DNA of 64,000 bases from Patescibacteria group bacterium (GTDB lineage Bacteria; Patescibacteriota; Minisyncoccia; JAHIHE01; JAGLIN01). Under the pieces are notes generated by a model. That model did no database searches. It was not told where the DNA came from and saw nothing but the letters and a program-made list of their open reading frames with translations. The position numbers and the translations under genes were made by a program. This document shows, one piece after another, positions 16,318 through 23,420 of this stretch (the first letter of the stretch is position 1; every line of letters starts with the position of its first letter). Location of the stretch: NCBI GenBank assembly GCA_019428855.1, contig JAHYJV010000002.1:1917-65916 (forward strand), written 5' to 3'.

Positions 16318-19372
<3,055 letters not shown>

Positions 19373-19530
19373 ATTTAATGTAAGATTAACTAGCAATTAA
19401 AATTTGCAATTTAATATTTTATAATATTTTTTACCTATTTATATATATTCAATTGTCAATGATCATTCAAATCTTATATCTTCCGTTCATCTTCTAAATA
19501 TTAGAAAATGAATTAAAACTATAATTTTAA

Positions 19531-19563
19531 AAAATAAAACCGCCTTGTTCAGAGGCGATTTTA
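19531..19563 (-). terminator. Hairpin + U-run between the ITS membrane-protein gene and 23S (minus strand)
   Basis: Reverse complement AATCGCCTctgaacaAGGCGGTT followed by TTATTTTTT. Confidence 0.45.
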
Positions 19564-19857
19564 ATCTTGTGATAATCACAAAATTAACCGCCATTTAATC
19601 ACTTAAATTCAATTCCATTTTTTTCATAACTTTATATTATGAATTAATGATTTTGCAAAATTAAAACTAAACATTACTTACATAGAATAGCACAACTAAT
19701 AATACTGTCAAGTCTTAATTAATAATGCTTAAAACATAGAAAAAAAATTATTTTTTCAAGGAAGATTATACCTATTTATTGCTAAAATAAAAGAAGATAG
19801 ATAAGATTGATCTATCTTCTTTTTAGTGCTGTTAGACAAGTATTGAACAACAAGTTT

Positions 19858-20541
19858 CTATTTTAACTTATCTTTCAATTCATCCAGTAGTTCTTTCGCA
19901 TGGTATTGTCCACCCAATCCAAATGCAAGTCCTCCTGCAATGGCAAGCATTAAAGATAAACCACCTGCAAAAATCTTAATAATTTCCATACCAATTTGAA
20001 TTTGCTCCAGTACAACTAAGAATGTAAATATAATAATCGTCCACTTAAATAAAAATGCAACCAAATGATACATTCGAATTCCACTAGCTTTTGCCAGACC
20101 GTCTGTTGATTCGTACACAAGTTGAGAAATAATAACACCAATTGTCAAGCTAATAATCGCTAGAAATAAACTAGGTAGATAACTTAATATTTGTGCTAGA
20201 AATTCCGATACTTGTGGGATATCCATTATATCTACTACAAACTTTAAAGTAAATATCAGAATAAACCATTTAACCAACCAGCCTACGAGTTTCGAAATCG
20301 AAAAATTTATATTAATTCTTTTAAAACATTTTTTTATCCCAGCTTTTTCCAGCGATTTATCAATACTCATTTTTTCAAAAAGAATTTTTGTTAATTTTTC
20401 AAGTTCAACTGCAAACATCAAACCAATGAAGAAAACAAAGACTGCCGAAAAGATAGAACCCTCTATAAGAAATGCTTGATAAAAATTATAGATCGAACTT
20501 GGAATCTCGTAATAAACATCTGTAAATAAATTATATTGCAT
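19858..20541 (-). CDS. Multi-pass membrane protein (conserved-TM-helix / small MscS-like N-terminal family), located inside the 16S-23S spacer
   Basis: 227 aa with several TM helices. SD GGGGGTG lies 5 nt upstream of the ATG. Same strand as the rRNAs, between tRNA-Ala and 23S. Confidence 0.7.
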   Translation of the reverse strand: MQYNLFTDVYYEIPSSIYNFYQAFLIEGSIFSAVFVFFIGLMFAVELEKLTKILFEKMSIDKSLEKAGIKKCFKRININFSISKLVGWLVKWFILIFTLKFVVDIMDIPQVSEFLAQILSYLPSLFLAIISLTIGVIISQLVYESTDGLAKASGIRMYHLVAFLFKWTIIIFTFLVVLEQIQIGMEIIKIFAGGLSLMLAIAGGLAFGLGGQYHAKELLDELKDKLK

Positions 20542-20719
20542 TTATAACACCCCCTTTCTTTTTATTTTTTTAATTAAATGTTATTAATTTTTTAAGAAAT
20601 TTATGAAAAAATATTATCTAAAATTGTTTTTATGTCTATGATAATATTATAACACATATTAATTATACTGCAATTTTATTTCGCAAGTTCTATATTGATT
20701 TTAAAATTATATTTTTTAG

Positions 20720-20758
20720 AAATAAAATCTTAGAAAGTTATCTCTGAGATTTTATTTG
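20720..20758. repeat. Perfect 11-bp inverted repeat AAATAAAATCT/AGATTTTATTT, 28 nt before the recombinase remnant
   Basis: Read directly. Loop is 17 nt. Confidence 0.6.
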
Positions 20759-20785
20759 TGAACATTAAATTTTGGTGGTGTTTGT

Positions 20786-21191
20786 TTGAAAAAGTCAGAA
20801 CTCATTTTGAACAAAATACAGATTATGCTTGTTCAGAATAGAAAACCCCGCAAAAAGCGAGGGGCAAAAAATTTTCAATATTTAGGTTTTGCTACTTGTG
20901 GGATTTGTGGCTATGCCATAACCGCCGAAAGACATATTAAAAAAAGTGGTTTGAAATTTGTTTATTATTATTGCAACCACAAAAGCAAAACTGTTGCTCG
21001 CACTGAAAATTGTTTTTTTGCGGGAAGAAGCTTTAACCGAACAAGTAAAAAACCTTTGTCAAAAAGTTTCTTTGCCTGATGAGTGGTGGAAAAGAAAACA
21101 ATTGAGGAAAAATTATCGGATTTTGAACGAAAAGGTAATCATTGGCTCGAACTCATGCGAAACTGAATTATTGAAGCCAACCAAGCCGTAA
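20786..21191 (+). pseudogene. Frameshifted 3' fragment of a large serine recombinase gene (zinc beta-ribbon + C-terminal coiled-coil only)
   Basis: FQYLGFATCGICGYAIT...KFVYYYCNHKSK...TENC matches the serine-recombinase zinc-ribbon domain. Translation continues in another frame (LREEALTEQVKNLCQKVSLPDEWWKRKQ) after a T7 homopolymer near 21013-21019. No resolvase catalytic domain upstream. Confidence 0.55.
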
Positions 21192-21323
21192 ATCTCTATA
21201 AACAAGAAAATCCCTCAAGGATGAGAGATTTTCTTGTTTCCATCGGCTCGAACCGTAGAATTTTGGCGGGAATTATTTCGGCGGAATTCAAAACCCCCTG
21301 GAATTTCTTGGAGAAAACCAATG

Positions 21324-21344
21324 CCGAGGGGCGAAGCCCCGAGG
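21324..21344 (-). terminator. GC-rich hairpin (GGGGC-GAA-GCCCC) with a downstream U-run on the minus strand, just 3' of tRNA-Ala
   Basis: CCGAGGGGCGAAGCCCCGAGG. On the minus strand it is followed by GGTTTTCTCC. Strongly GC-rich in an AT-rich spacer. Confidence 0.4.
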
Positions 21345-21367
21345 CAACTTCTTTAACAAATTCGGAC

Positions 21368-21444
21368 TGGTGGACCCAACAGGATTCGAACCTGCGACCC
21401 CCTGCTTGCAAAGCAGGTGCTCTAGCCAACTGAGCTATGGGCCC
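21368..21444 (-). tRNA. tRNA-Ala (anticodon UGC), CCA encoded
   Basis: GGGCCCATAGCTCAGTTGGCTAGAGCACCTGCTTTGCAAGCAGGGGGTCGCAGGTTCGAATCCTGTTGGGTCCACCA. Cloverleaf with a G3-U70 pair. Confidence 0.95.
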
Positions 21445-21555
21445 ATAATTTTTTTCGTTTTATATAATAATATTTGAACATCTTATACTGCTTGATTATT
21501 ATATCAAAATCAACTGTATTCGACTATATCTTAAATATATAAAAGCTAAAACGAG

Positions 21556-21629
21556 TGGGCGTACCTGGACTCGAACCAGGGACCTTTACATTATCAGTGT
21601 AACGCTCTAACCAGCTGAGCTATACGCCC
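21556..21629 (-). tRNA. tRNA-Ile (anticodon GAU)
   Basis: GGGCGTATAGCTCAGCTGGTTAGAGCGTTACACTGATAATGTAAAGGTCCCTGGTTCGAGTCCAGGTACGCCCA. Confidence 0.95.
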
Positions 21630-21954
21630 GGATGCTAATTTCTAATTTTAAATCAATTTCTAATAACTGAATTTTTTATATTAAAAATTAAGACATTAGT
21701 TAAAAATAATGAAATTCACTTCTCTATTATAACAAAAATCGCATCTTATGCAATACTATTGTATAGATGCGATTTTTGTTTTCACTTTTATTACAAACTT
21801 TGTGCAATTGTCCTGAAGGCAATTTTGTTCCTATCTACTCGAAAATAGATAAGCCTGTATTACCAACAGCCAAACATGTAGATGATATTAAAATCATTCT
21901 ACAGACGATCTCGGTGAGTGTATTTCTTTAGACTAAAGAAATAACTTTCTCCCT

Positions 21955-23420
<1,466 letters not shown>

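Follow-up and report, generated by a model that had tools for sequence, protein, structure and literature searches.

A tripartite rRNA region in a Patescibacteria genome, with a putative leader-peptide attenuator before 23S rRNA and the relic of an integrated element at tRNA-Ala

The window, the whole 64,000-nucleotide stretch analysed here, comes from contig JAHYJV010000002.1 of a Patescibacteria group bacterium. On its minus strand, Rfam and ARAGORN place 16S, tRNA-Ile, tRNA-Ala, non-rRNA DNA, 23S and 5S in this order, as in the initial annotation, and 16S and 23S are separated by 2,580 bp of non-rRNA DNA (19376 to 21957; Table 1). The 23S-5S spacing was measured to be 153 nt and not 157 nt as first given; the clean terminator noted after 5S is present. 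rRNA genes are regarded as unlinked when the nearest 16S and 23S lie more than 1,500 bp apart, and Patescibacteria are among the clades in which this is frequent (Brewer et al., bioRxiv 10.1101/705046). The present locus lies beyond this threshold. Unlike in that survey, which deals with distances only, an intervening gene with deep conservation next to 23S and the separate predicted promoters and leaders of both rRNA units are described here, and 16S and 23S are still neighbours on one strand.

Table 1. Features of the rRNA region in the window.
Feature	Position	Strand	Basis or detail
16S rRNA gene	21957-23423	-	Rfam SSU_rRNA_bacteria, 1467 bits
tRNA-Ile(GAU)	21555-21629	-	Rfam/ARAGORN
tRNA-Ala(UGC)	21368-21444	-	ARAGORN
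23S rRNA gene, 3,064 nt	16313-19376	-	Rfam LSU_rRNA_bacteria, 2492 bits
5S rRNA gene	16043-16159	-	Rfam
Terminator after 5S, AT-rich, AAAAAAAAGACAU-UUUAU-AUGUCUUUUUUU	15995-16024 (about)	-	predicted
16S leader	23601-23769	-	two tandem promoters and boxA-like box
Distal 16S promoter, TTGACA-N17-TAGTAT	23769-23741	-	predicted
Proximal 16S promoter, CTTGACAcgtgttttgttTGTGCTATTAT	23665-23637	-	predicted
boxA-like box of 16S leader, GTTCATTAACAATTAAATA	23619-23601	-	sequence resemblance
AT-rich hairpin with U-rich tail, original flank 3' of tRNA-Ala	20720-20757	-	-12 kcal/mol, z -4.1
attL core CCACCA (tRNA-Ala 3' end)	21368-21373	-	repeat match
GC-rich hairpin and weak U-run just past tRNA-Ala	21324-21342	-	-22 kcal/mol, z -2.4
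Integrase pseudogene, 3' half, zinc ribbon to C-terminus	20810-21367	+	frameshifted remnant traced at 20786-21340; homologue alignments
Inverted repeat in integrase coding region	21200-21239	.	18 bp per arm, 94% complementary, -24.3 kcal/mol, z -5.4
attR	20773-20809	+	TGGTGG core 20773-20778, then P' arm
P' arm, TGTTTGTTTGAAAAAGTCAGAACTCATTTTG	20779-20809	+	matches attP form in L091, L090
Candidate promoter of membrane gene, TTGCAG-N16-TGtTATAAT	20646-20673	-	read from sequence
227-aa membrane protein	19858-20541	-	two PF05552 repeats; homologous to MscS TM1-TM3a
Intrinsic terminator of membrane gene, 14-bp AT-rich stem and U-run	19783-19823	-	-15.1 kcal/mol, z -4.3
23S-5S promoter, CTTGACAgtattattagtTGTGCTATTCT	19684-19712	-	paralogue of proximal 16S promoter; predicted
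Leader ORF, MKKMELNLSD*	19595-19627	-	read from sequence; translation predicted
Antiterminator hairpin P1	19554-19592	-	segment 1 (19592-19576) : segment 2 (19572-19554)
Predicted attenuator terminator, then U4AU6	19529-19563	-	segment 2 AUCGCCU 19559-19553 : segment 3 AGGCGGU 19545-19539
Hairpin, then boxA-like box GATCATTGACAATTGAATA	19446-19512	-	hairpin 19512-19486; box 19464-19446

The 16S leader in the window contains neither a leader ORF nor a terminator, and its layout is the same in three relatives (L001, L003 and L006). The AT-rich hairpin of the original tRNA-Ala flank is the counterpart of terminator-like hairpins found after tRNA-Ala in L003 and L006. A first unit would run from the two promoters and the boxA-like box through 16S, tRNA-Ile and tRNA-Ala, and stop at the hairpins after tRNA-Ala. 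The promoter and box before 23S are paralogous to those upstream of 16S, and a further unit would start at this promoter and pass through a leader into 23S and 5S. Each unit has its own conserved, predicted promoter and boxA-like box, supporting the earlier suggestion that 16S with its tRNAs and 23S-5S look like separate transcription units. In E. coli, rrn leaders carry boxB-boxA-boxC antitermination elements, with UGCUCUUUAACAA as boxA, and the spacer boxA lies within one continuous transcript. By resemblance, the leaders of both rRNA units here also appear to contain a hairpin followed by a U/A-rich box (GAUCAUUGACAAUUGAAUA), and we take the pair in the 23S leader to resemble E. coli boxB and boxA.

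Between these two units, the membrane protein gene would form a unit of its own, with a candidate promoter, a strong Shine-Dalgarno sequence and a terminator. The gene is present as annotated, as a 227-aa multi-TM ORF preceded by GGGGGTG; a TATAAT-like motif of relatives aligns at the candidate promoter, and analogous terminators lie behind the gene in all relatives. A hairpin and U-run at 19531-19563 had been taken for its terminator. The hairpin and U-run exist, at 19535-19563, but lie downstream of a separate promoter and belong to the 23S leader; the gene has its own terminator further upstream. A profile search of the 227-aa protein led to PF05552 (E 2.8e-9). The profile of its family aligns to MscS residues 24-115 (E 1e-8), and MscS was the sole credible local Foldseek match (4.0 A rmsd). 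As in E. coli MscS, a Gly/Ala-rich pore-lining TM3 follows a TM1-TM2 paddle: the C-terminal ~95 residues align with TM1-TM2-TM3a, including the pore-helix motif (AGGLAFGLGG, invariant in the family). Unlike MscS, the protein has an additional N-terminal PF05552 repeat and is devoid of the cytoplasmic beta and alpha-beta vestibule; it ends ~20 residues past the TM3a motif, with no match to the PF00924 core, and scores 50.5 bits against the NCBIfam msc cutoff of 100. The gene probably encodes the membrane module of a channel related to MscS. Purifying selection acts on it (dN/dS 0.08-0.18), and its G+C content is in line with that of the genome.

In the 23S leader of the window, the terminator and P1 have 6 nt in common. 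A TTGACA near 19455 had been noted as a promoter-like hexamer; it lies at 19453-19458 inside the conserved boxA-like box, has no usable -10 hexamer and is not a promoter. The promoter proper is near-identical in six genomes, even though dS of the adjacent gene exceeds 1, and from promoter to 23S the sequences of the window and L004 share 80-90% identity, compared with ~45% just upstream of the promoter. The leader layout recurs in 27 phylogenetically related loci (~19-20 independent lineages), all found through the membrane gene, with a complementarity that is lineage-specific. A TTGAC-type promoter precedes the leader in 27/27 loci, with a perfect GGAGGTAAAAATG in L014. The start codon lies 8-17 nt past the -10 hexamer in 14 of the 27, a near-leaderless group that L012, measured from an upstream ATG, would join if its reassigned ORF start (~18 nt) were used.

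Of the 27 loci, 26 have an ATG-ORF of 8-17 codons whose end lies 20-75 nt ahead of the terminator (7.2 expected from shuffles), in an unbiased re-test that only partly removes the bias of leader ORFs and segments set partly by eye. In an earlier set of 23 loci, 13 had ORFs of 13-14 codons (0.29 expected). The ORFs of relatives span 8-17 codons, mostly 13-14, and end in Ser-Gly-stop, whereas that of the window is atypical, with 10 codons and a stop 4 nt before segment 1. Leader peptides have just a basic stretch and the Ser-Gly end in common, their sequences being otherwise not conserved; no obvious clusters of regulatory codons were found in them, and most of the ORFs have no Shine-Dalgarno sequence. 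A short ORF between a promoter and an intrinsic terminator is the arrangement expected of an attenuator.

Cognate duplexes of segments 1 and 2 average -13.3 kcal/mol and non-cognate ones -9.3 kcal/mol, and 0 of 20,000 permutations were as good. The antiterminator overlaps the 5' arm of the terminator by at least 3 nt in 25/27 loci, and the start of its 5' strand precedes the stop codon by 6 nt (median). Computationally, the two structures are mutually exclusive and the antiterminator strand lies within reach of a ribosome: blocking the ORF through stop+11 nt made the terminator fold in each of the 23 loci examined. In 13 of 23 loci, however, the free leader already shows the terminator in its minimum-energy fold, and the switch would then have to rely on folding kinetics. 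The module is missing before 16S, behind the membrane gene in 17 same-branch loci unlinked to 23S, and from L079. The best sub-threshold Rfam matches of the leader are leader-peptide attenuators; the resemblance to Thr_leader (RF00506) is weak, at 28 bits against a gathering score of 55, which leaves the leader outside that family.

What might such a leader do? We propose that it is a leader-peptide attenuator before 23S-5S, with promoters, terminators and translation of the leader all predicted from sequence. It would comprise a short ORF, an antiterminator with a 5' strand beginning ~6 nt ahead of the stop codon, an intrinsic terminator with a 5' arm common to the antiterminator, and then the further hairpin and boxA-like box. 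A ribosome translating the ORF would, on reaching the stop codon, cover the antiterminator 5' strand; the terminator would then form, and RNA polymerase would halt before 23S. On a leader without a ribosome, the antiterminator would form and allow read-through into 23S-5S. The outcome would be negative feedback of translational capacity onto 23S-5S synthesis, confined to the rRNA unit no longer co-transcribed with 16S. We suggest only tentatively that 23S-5S is gated across a large part of Patescibacteria by a translated, often near-leaderless mini-ORF, whose terminating ribosome flips the antiterminator to the terminator. If true, ribosomes would feed back on rRNA synthesis through a direct, hard-wired loop, and 23S would be rebalanced against 16S after the operon split.

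The switch could also be real but set by a trans-acting factor instead of ORF translation: a small molecule, a Nus factor, or a ribosomal protein for which the leader would mimic the binding site on rRNA. The hairpins are supported independently of the ORF, the lack of a Shine-Dalgarno sequence in most ORFs fits this reading, and ribosomal-protein-mediated attenuation is known, as for L10(L12)4 at B. subtilis rplJL (PMC4538822). We nevertheless consider it unlikely, given an ORF of fixed size and stop position far in excess of shuffles, a stop codon that overlaps the antiterminator 5' strand, and start codons that hug the promoter as in leaderless mRNAs. In addition, the antiterminator loop varies in sequence and length, and therefore offers no conserved pocket to which a ligand or protein could bind.

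Promoter, short ORF and terminator could instead be an independent small gene, for a micro-peptide or small RNA, with a constitutive terminator and merely incidental alternative pairing, 23S being transcribed from another downstream start or by unregulated leak-through. The terminator is indeed canonical and prevails in the minimum-energy structure of roughly half the leaders, and the region past it is also conserved, contains a TTGACA motif and could conceal a promoter. However, three compact loci (L062, L063 and L065) have ~90 nt between terminator and 23S, and no -10 hexamer at proper spacing was found there. A TTGACA box is also present downstream of the 16S promoter, and is therefore transcribed leader sequence. 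Together with the lineage-wise covariation of segments 1 and 2, their overlap with the terminator arm and the unconserved peptide sequences, these observations make the small-gene reading quite improbable.

The proposed attenuator has features in common with the trp, thr, his and pheA leaders and with the ribosome-mediated attenuation of bmrCD in B. subtilis (PMC4191407): its short ORF is promoter-proximal, its antiterminator and terminator hairpins exclude each other, and a ribosome terminating at its stop codon would mask the antiterminator strand. Unlike in those systems, 23S and 5S rRNA would be controlled and not an amino-acid or transporter operon, regulatory-codon runs are absent, and many of the ORFs are near-leaderless. 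Full-text literature searches found no description of a leader-peptide attenuator before an rRNA gene. The significance of the proposal can be judged against classical rRNA operons, which are controlled at initiation and protected from termination; to our knowledge, no leader-peptide attenuator is known in front of an rRNA gene. If real, it would put an old device to new use, give a concrete answer to the 16S/23S balance where the genes are uncoupled, and literally embody the old notion of "ribosome feedback", in bacteria whose regulatory repertoires are very small. The leader element is short (~150 nt) and could be tested in coupled transcription-translation without culturing the organisms.

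Next to tRNA-Ala, the opposite strand carries the frameshifted 3' remnant of a large serine recombinase, as first recognized. The relic measures 595 bp (20773-21367) between CCACCA direct repeats, and not the ~2 kb once thought to be inserted. What it contains of a large serine integrase gene is the 3' half, in decay: compared with intact copies, the gene is truncated at its 5' end, has gained 1 nt and lost 187 bp internally, and carries a stop in place of a Trp codon; the region for the coiled coil is missing. Pfam Zn_ribbon_recom (PF13408) matches the fragment below the cutoff (E 4.8e-4, 20.9 bits; cutoff 25.3), and 232 homologues were found. Homologues carry PF07508 and PF13408 and match A118-type integrases; identity to the phage A118-type integrases is 24-26%. 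The resolvase catalytic domain (PF00239) with its active-site serine is absent from the window, the relic beginning past the recombinase domain; in the homologous copies L086 and L087, a Resolvase ORF lies immediately upstream.

A mobile element has integrated at the 3' end of tRNA-Ala, as initially supposed, and both junctions can be identified. A search for att-like repeats of the tRNA end found CCACCA at attL and again at 20773-20778, and the full CCA of tRNA-Ala is encoded here, unlike in relatives without the relic. The unintegrated form in L090 and L091 reads TGGTGG followed by TGTTTGTTTGAAAAAGT..., and this arm recurs in the window as the P' arm (30/31 nt identical in L091, 28/31 nt in L090), which codes for the native integrase tail CLFEKVRTHF. 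The attB side agrees with the tRNA-Ala flank layout of relatives. A short shared core is thus accompanied by arms matching attP and attB. Excising 20773-21367 leaves a tRNA-to-gene gap of 231 bp, resembling relatives. Integrase homologues in L086-L089 end in antisense tRNA-Ala sequence, and for at least 35 of 120 homologues the end is antisense to some tRNA. The GC-rich hairpin noted after tRNA-Ala is present and derives from the element: it encodes integrase residues AEGRSPEA and is identical in unintegrated L091. The inverted repeat within the coding region, described as 13 bp and perfect, exists with longer, imperfect arms, and is kept in L090 and L091. An element with a large serine integrase recombined at the CCACCA end of tRNA-Ala; its attP sits in the final ~15 codons of the integrase gene that it carries. 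A deletion across a TTTTGA(A/C)CAAA microhomology then probably removed the cargo and the integrase 5' half, leaving 595 bp.

The relic is ordinary in kind. Dehalococcoides ssrA-specific genomic islands carry the serine recombinase DsiB, whose gene, its authors suggest, may be complete on the circular form alone (PMC3146451). As there, a large serine recombinase element lies at the 3' end of a tRNA-like gene, with the recombinase gene 3' end overlapping attL. Unlike there, the target is a patescibacterial tRNA-Ala (UGC, GGC or CGC), the direct repeat spans 6 bp instead of 20 bp, and the window has an internally deleted relic only. The relic documents a family of serine integrases that target tRNA-Ala and are widespread in Patescibacteria.

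Did the element split the operon? In L001, L003 and L006 the order is 16S, tRNA-Ile, tRNA-Ala, membrane gene, 23S and 5S, with a membrane protein 61-64% identical, a tRNA-to-gene gap of 229-306 bp and no recombinase DNA in the spacers. Homologues at 26-40% identity lie directly upstream of 23S across many Patescibacteria lineages. Close relatives without the relic have the gene between tRNA-Ala and 23S, and distant Patescibacteria have it directly upstream of 23S; the split therefore predates the insertion and was not created by it. The membrane gene has held its position since before many Patescibacteria lineages diverged. It is likely, taking the explanation as a whole with the 23S attenuator included, that this rRNA region has been tripartite since ancient times and later acquired a small mobile-element scar. 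The initial annotation held that a recent integration had split a contiguous operon and brought the membrane gene as cargo, of which the gene and a recombinase fragment remain; the integrase remnant adjoining tRNA-Ala and the att-like repeats accord with this, but it is already contradicted, and extremely improbable, as the membrane gene lies outside the repeats, occupies the same place in relatives free of recombinase traces (a comparison the annotation had itself named as decisive against it), adjoins 23S over very divergent lineages, and has genome-like G+C and purifying selection.

23S lies directly downstream of the membrane gene on the same strand in 28 of 85 loci (20 of the 58 whose downstream DNA spans at least 3 kb), all within one major branch of the protein tree. 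Adjacency was lost in 17 of 40 linked-branch loci with enough downstream DNA, and the synteny may therefore be historical rather than functional. In Rickettsia, 16S is reportedly apart from 23S-5S, with the protein gene fmt upstream of 23S. In both cases the operon is split and a conserved protein-coding gene directly precedes 23S-5S; the gene here is one for a membrane protein, and the hosts are probably episymbiotic CPR bacteria, in contrast to the intracellular Rickettsia. Most close homologues of the membrane gene are on 1-3 kb contigs, as one would expect of a gene with rRNA genes on its flanks. A protein gene conserved in or next to the rRNA operon explains metagenome assembly breaks at such spacers, and also the unexpectedly long 16S-ITS-23S amplicon products expected for the group.

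The rRNA locus lies in DNA of low G+C content (about 31% across the window), and every feature listed in the initial annotation was found there in the reported gene order. At gathering thresholds, Rfam reported nothing but rRNAs and tRNAs in the window. The 16S-23S interval measures 2,580 bp. Two lengths required correction: the inverted repeat at 21200-21239 is present but has 18-bp rather than 13-bp arms, and 23S and 5S are 153 nt apart rather than 157 nt. The interval between them contains the strong promoter-like sequences TTGACA-N16-TACACT and TTGAAA-N16-TATAAT (11/12 matches) at 16175-16210 on the minus strand, about 15 nt before 5S; they could represent an internal 5S promoter or chance occurrences in AT-rich DNA. 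The 23S gene is 3,064 nt long, compared with 2,925 nt in the model. In L001, a comparison locus from another genome, 23S spans 4,265 nt (9310-13574) and presumably includes some 1.3 kb of inserted sequence, because an ORF is called within it at 12477-12785.

Features of the rRNA locus in the window and of related loci
Feature	Locus and position	Strand	Basis or comparison
16S	window 23423-21957	-	Rfam, ARAGORN
tRNA-Ile(GAU)	window 21629-21555	-	Rfam, ARAGORN
tRNA-Ala(UGC)	window 21444-21368	-	Rfam, ARAGORN
attL, TGGTGG (tRNA-Ala CCA end)	window 21368-21373
Conserved integrase 3' stretch	window 21100-21340; L090 6500-6800; L091 560-830	+ (window)
attR, second TGGTGG	window 20773-20778
P' arm of attR	window 20779-20809		30/31 nt versus L091
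attP/tail region	window 20773-20820; L090 6790-6840; L091 825-885
Conserved gene upstream of membrane gene	L019 6245-6874; L022 6173-6820; L024 6072-6755; L038 6226-6846; L048 6027-6812; L073 6195-6773
Terminator of membrane gene	window 19823-19783	-
23S promoter CTTGACAgtattattagtTGTGCTATTCT	window 19712-19684	-
Leader ORF	window 19627-19595	-
Long hairpin P1	window 19592-19554	-
Terminator	window 19563-19529	-
Second hairpin	window 19512-19486	-
Box GATCATTGACAATTGAATA	window 19464-19446	-
23S terminal stem	window, adjoins 19376	-
23S	window 19376-16313	-	Rfam, ARAGORN
5S	window 16159-16043	-	Rfam, ARAGORN

The proposal that 16S-tRNAs and 23S-5S form separate transcription units was supported by a conserved promoter and leader before 23S and by a promoter and box of paralogous appearance before 16S. 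The 23S promoter is near-invariant in five relatives and similar to the proximal one of 16S, CTTGACAcgtgttttgttTGTGCTATTAT (23665-23637). Just downstream of the latter, at 23619-23601, lies a close copy of the 23S-leader box, which we take to resemble E. coli rrn boxA; the box also follows the 16S promoter in the related loci L001 and L003 and, as a variant with one further mismatch, in L006. Between the window and L004, the closest relative (a 2-kb contig, membrane protein 81% identical), identity is 80-90% from the promoter to 23S and about 45% in the DNA immediately preceding the promoter; synonymous sites in the adjoining membrane gene are saturated. This conservation of promoter, box and leader supports the conclusion of separate units. 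The TTGACA near 19455, previously read as a promoter, has no -10 hexamer at the proper spacing and belongs instead to the longer conserved box. Likewise, the hairpin at 19535-19563 does not terminate the membrane gene, which has its own terminator 35 nt past the stop codon, with the conserved promoter in between. Co-transcription of the membrane gene with 23S is unlikely because all lineages inspected have a canonical terminator after that gene. The 16S unit has two tandem promoter-like sites (23637-23769, minus strand) about 105 nt apart, conserved in L001, L003 and L006, and the 23S unit has one. L001 also contains a 34-nt GC-rich perfect palindrome, GGAGTCCGATTCCGAAGCTTCGGAGTCGGACTCC, between the 23S promoter and the leader ORF (8870-8910), missing in L006 and the window.

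A split between 16S and 23S is an arrangement of a known kind in the Patescibacteria phylum (10.1101/705046). The initial annotation explained it here by integration of a mobile element beside tRNA-Ala, with the membrane gene as cargo. This explanation is wrong: L001, L003 and L006 (61-64% protein identity) have the same order, clpP - 16S - tRNA-Ile - tRNA-Ala - membrane gene - 23S - 5S, with a gap of 229-306 bp from tRNA-Ala to the membrane gene and zero recombinase DNA. Relatives lacking recombinase DNA thus have the gene in the same place, and the membrane gene is not cargo. We hold the anatomy and history of the locus, as reconstructed here, with high confidence.

Close homologues of the membrane gene are mostly found on contigs of 1-3 kb, as expected for a gene enclosed by rRNA genes, at which assemblies break. 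A scan for distant relatives, limited to a single genome for each species, yielded 80 loci, giving 85 in total, with record titles including Taylor-, Moran-, Kaiser-, Giovannoni-, Azam- and Adlerbacteria, Spechtbacterales and others. 23S lies directly downstream on the same strand in 28 of the 85 loci, and in 20 of the 58 that have at least 3 kb of downstream DNA; this is far above chance, because a genome of about 1,000 genes offers one such position. In the protein tree, the 23S-linked loci occupy one major branch, in which the linkage has been lost here and there, and the other branch, mostly of Uhrbacteria-type sequences, has none. Upstream, 16S and both tRNAs are retained in some loci (L062, L063, L065 and L079) and missing in many. 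In L067 (1-4306), 3-4 kb separate the membrane gene from the 16S end, tRNA-Ile and tRNA-Ala upstream of it, with 23S gone, and in L080 (65-5165) 3-4 kb separate it from an upstream tRNA-Ala; neither locus has 23S within 6.4-7 kb after the gene, and the break in the operon apparently occurred on the gene's other side in these lineages. The simplest reading is that the membrane gene entered the spacer once, long ago, and that lineages later broke the operon on either side. The full-text literature search found no gene in the spacer described in CPR bacteria and, in the papers searched, no description of a membrane gene anciently lodged in or beside an rRNA operon. In L004, 420 bp separate the membrane gene from an upstream NUDIX hydrolase gene (8-430); other relatives have tRNA-Ala at that place, and the interval between tRNA-Ala and the membrane gene seems prone to insertions. 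Six distant loci encode, immediately upstream of the membrane gene, a conserved protein of about 190-260 aa with the common motifs LGKLFGSxARVKxLRLF, DLLxVGD and DRLxRDVxDYPH, so the conserved block may reach beyond the membrane gene.

The 227-aa product has 567 homologues by homology search, with PF05552 in all matches listed; the same search found a 100% identical database entry (P0001) that exact-sequence look-up did not return. Pfam places the mechanosensitive-channel "conserved TM helix" twice in the protein, and the family profile aligned with residues 24-115 of E. coli MscS (E 1e-8). The AlphaFold model is all-helical (pLDDT 78). A Foldseek search of this model against the PDB gave no significant global match, the sole credible hit being a local one to the MscS region; the best-ranked BAR and Vipp1 helical bundles were discarded as long-helix noise (rmsd >17 A). 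The protein ends about 20 residues past the pore-helix motif AGGLAFGLGG and therefore has no cytoplasmic vestibule, unlike MscS proper, which is defined by one. With a dN/dS of 0.08-0.18, at a dS above 1 versus the nearest relatives, the gene is, by its substitution pattern, under strong purifying selection.

Between the membrane gene and 23S, 27 loci, very distant ones included, share one order: gene terminator, TTGAC-type promoter, short ORF, hairpin, terminator, TTGACAA-type box and 23S. All were reached via the membrane gene. The promoter motif precedes the leader ORF in 27 of 27, and in 14 of the 27 as listed the start codon lies 8-17 nt past the -10 hexamer; L012, with a reassigned start about 18 nt past it, is a further case. 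Such mRNAs would be nearly leaderless. Most leader ORFs were found to have no Shine-Dalgarno sequence, and that of L014 has a perfect one. The ORFs are 8-17 codons long, with 13-14 codons in 15 loci, most of which end Ser-Gly-stop; the peptides (MISKKMNFKKRKSG, MLISIKSIKKKSG, MTLFNSNSRIKSG and MRNILKTHNNSSG, for example) are otherwise unconserved. An ORF of 8-17 codons ending 20-75 nt before the terminator occurs in 26 of 27 loci versus 7.2 by shuffles, with no hand-picked stops, and a length of 13-14 codons in 13 loci of an earlier 23-locus set versus 0.29 expected. The window's ORF is atypical, having 10 codons and a stop 4 nt ahead of segment 1.

Segment 1, located at the stop codon (median start 6 nt before it) and often reading AAGCGG, is complementary to segment 2, the 5' arm of the terminator (often CCGCUU), which in its turn is able to pair with segment 3 (AAGCGG preceding a U-run). 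In 25 of 27 loci, the antiterminator and terminator helices have 3 nt or more in common. The duplex of segments 1 and 2 averages -13.3 kcal/mol within a locus versus -9.3 kcal/mol between mismatched loci, a value matched by none of 20,000 permutations, and at 16 of 23 loci the pairing of the real segment 1 is equalled by no more than 5% of its shuffled versions. In the window and nine other loci the free leader adopts the antiterminator fold, and elsewhere little energy separates the two alternatives; when the ORF plus the next 11 nt are blocked, every one of the 23 loci tested forms the terminator. The module was considered as an element of the membrane gene, and this was rejected: it is missing in 17 loci where that gene does not adjoin 23S, and it therefore belongs to 23S. 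It is also missing from 16S leaders and from one linked locus, L079. No Rfam family covers the leader, and permissive thresholds gave sub-threshold matches only, the best being the Thr and rnk leaders.

By its architecture, the leader looks like a leader-peptide attenuator. A ribosome finishing the ORF would mask segment 1, leaving segment 2 to pair with segment 3, and polymerase would terminate before the boxA-like element. With no ribosome, segments 1 and 2 would pair and polymerase would proceed into 23S-5S; abundant idle ribosomes would thus lower 23S-5S synthesis. Near-leaderless starts would, we infer, be consistent with whole ribosomes being sensed. We consider it fairly probable that the leader acts as a regulatory switch; that the switch senses ribosomes is offered more tentatively. 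Full-text literature searching found neither such a leader element nor an rRNA leader peptide in CPR bacteria, and the papers searched contained no description of an attenuator-like leader, conserved before 23S, whose mini-ORF looks translated.

The recombinase remnant beside tRNA-Ala proved to be a true integration scar, although the insertion is 595 bp rather than about 2 kb. Its stitched translation matched 232 proteins of at most 315 aa with Recombinase and zinc-ribbon domains. In L086 and L087 an ORF with a Resolvase domain immediately precedes the integrase homologue, so that the complete gene is a large serine integrase, often broken; the family is 24-26% identical to phage A118-type integrases. 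In L086-L089 the integrase 3' end overlaps the 3' end of tRNA-Ala (anticodon UGC, GGC or CGC), and antisense tRNA translation forms the terminus of at least 35 of 120 homologues. L090 and L091 represent the unintegrated form, in which the gene passes through TGGTGG into TGTTTGTTTGAAAAAGTCAGAACCCATTTTG with a conserved tail, CLFEKVRTHFEQNP; attP, whose sequence includes CAAACACCACCA, therefore lies within the last ~15 codons. The att-like repeats that the initial annotation proposed to look for at the tRNA-Ala 3' end were recovered as a 6-bp core through these unintegrated copies, but generic repeat finding gave only chance AT-rich repeats. The attR arm is joined straight to the middle of the integrase gene via short microhomology, and decay of the relic is also evident from one inserted nucleotide, a 187-bp deletion and a stop codon. 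Excising 20773-21367 gives a 231-bp tRNA-to-gene gap similar to that of relatives. CCA is encoded in the window's tRNA-Ala and absent from relatives' copies. Both the GC hairpin (21324-21342) and the 18-bp inverted repeat belong to the integrase gene, and both are conserved in L090 and L091. The relic is thus an ordinary decayed integrase. No relative of the element was found among IMG/VR viral contigs, and the closest described case is that of the Dehalococcoides ssrA islands, in which the serine recombinase gene likewise overlaps attL (PMC3146451).

Across contigs named for Lloyd-, Wildermuth-, Kaiser- and Nealsonbacteria, the last ~80 integrase codons show 75-93% protein identity, versus about 50% for the remainder; the inverted repeat is conserved within this stretch, and many matches are short fragments beside tRNAs. 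This pattern suggests one of two histories: the gene spread recently and its 5' portion decayed fast, or selection has acted on the 3' portion that is retained. Integration replaces the last ~15 residues (CLFEKVRTHFEQNP) by antisense-tRNA sequence. Diverged copies conserve variants of this tail in their protein sequence (WWNILNYVRTFFENF and WWGLLRKVRTYFEENP), and the tail may have a role in controlling direction.
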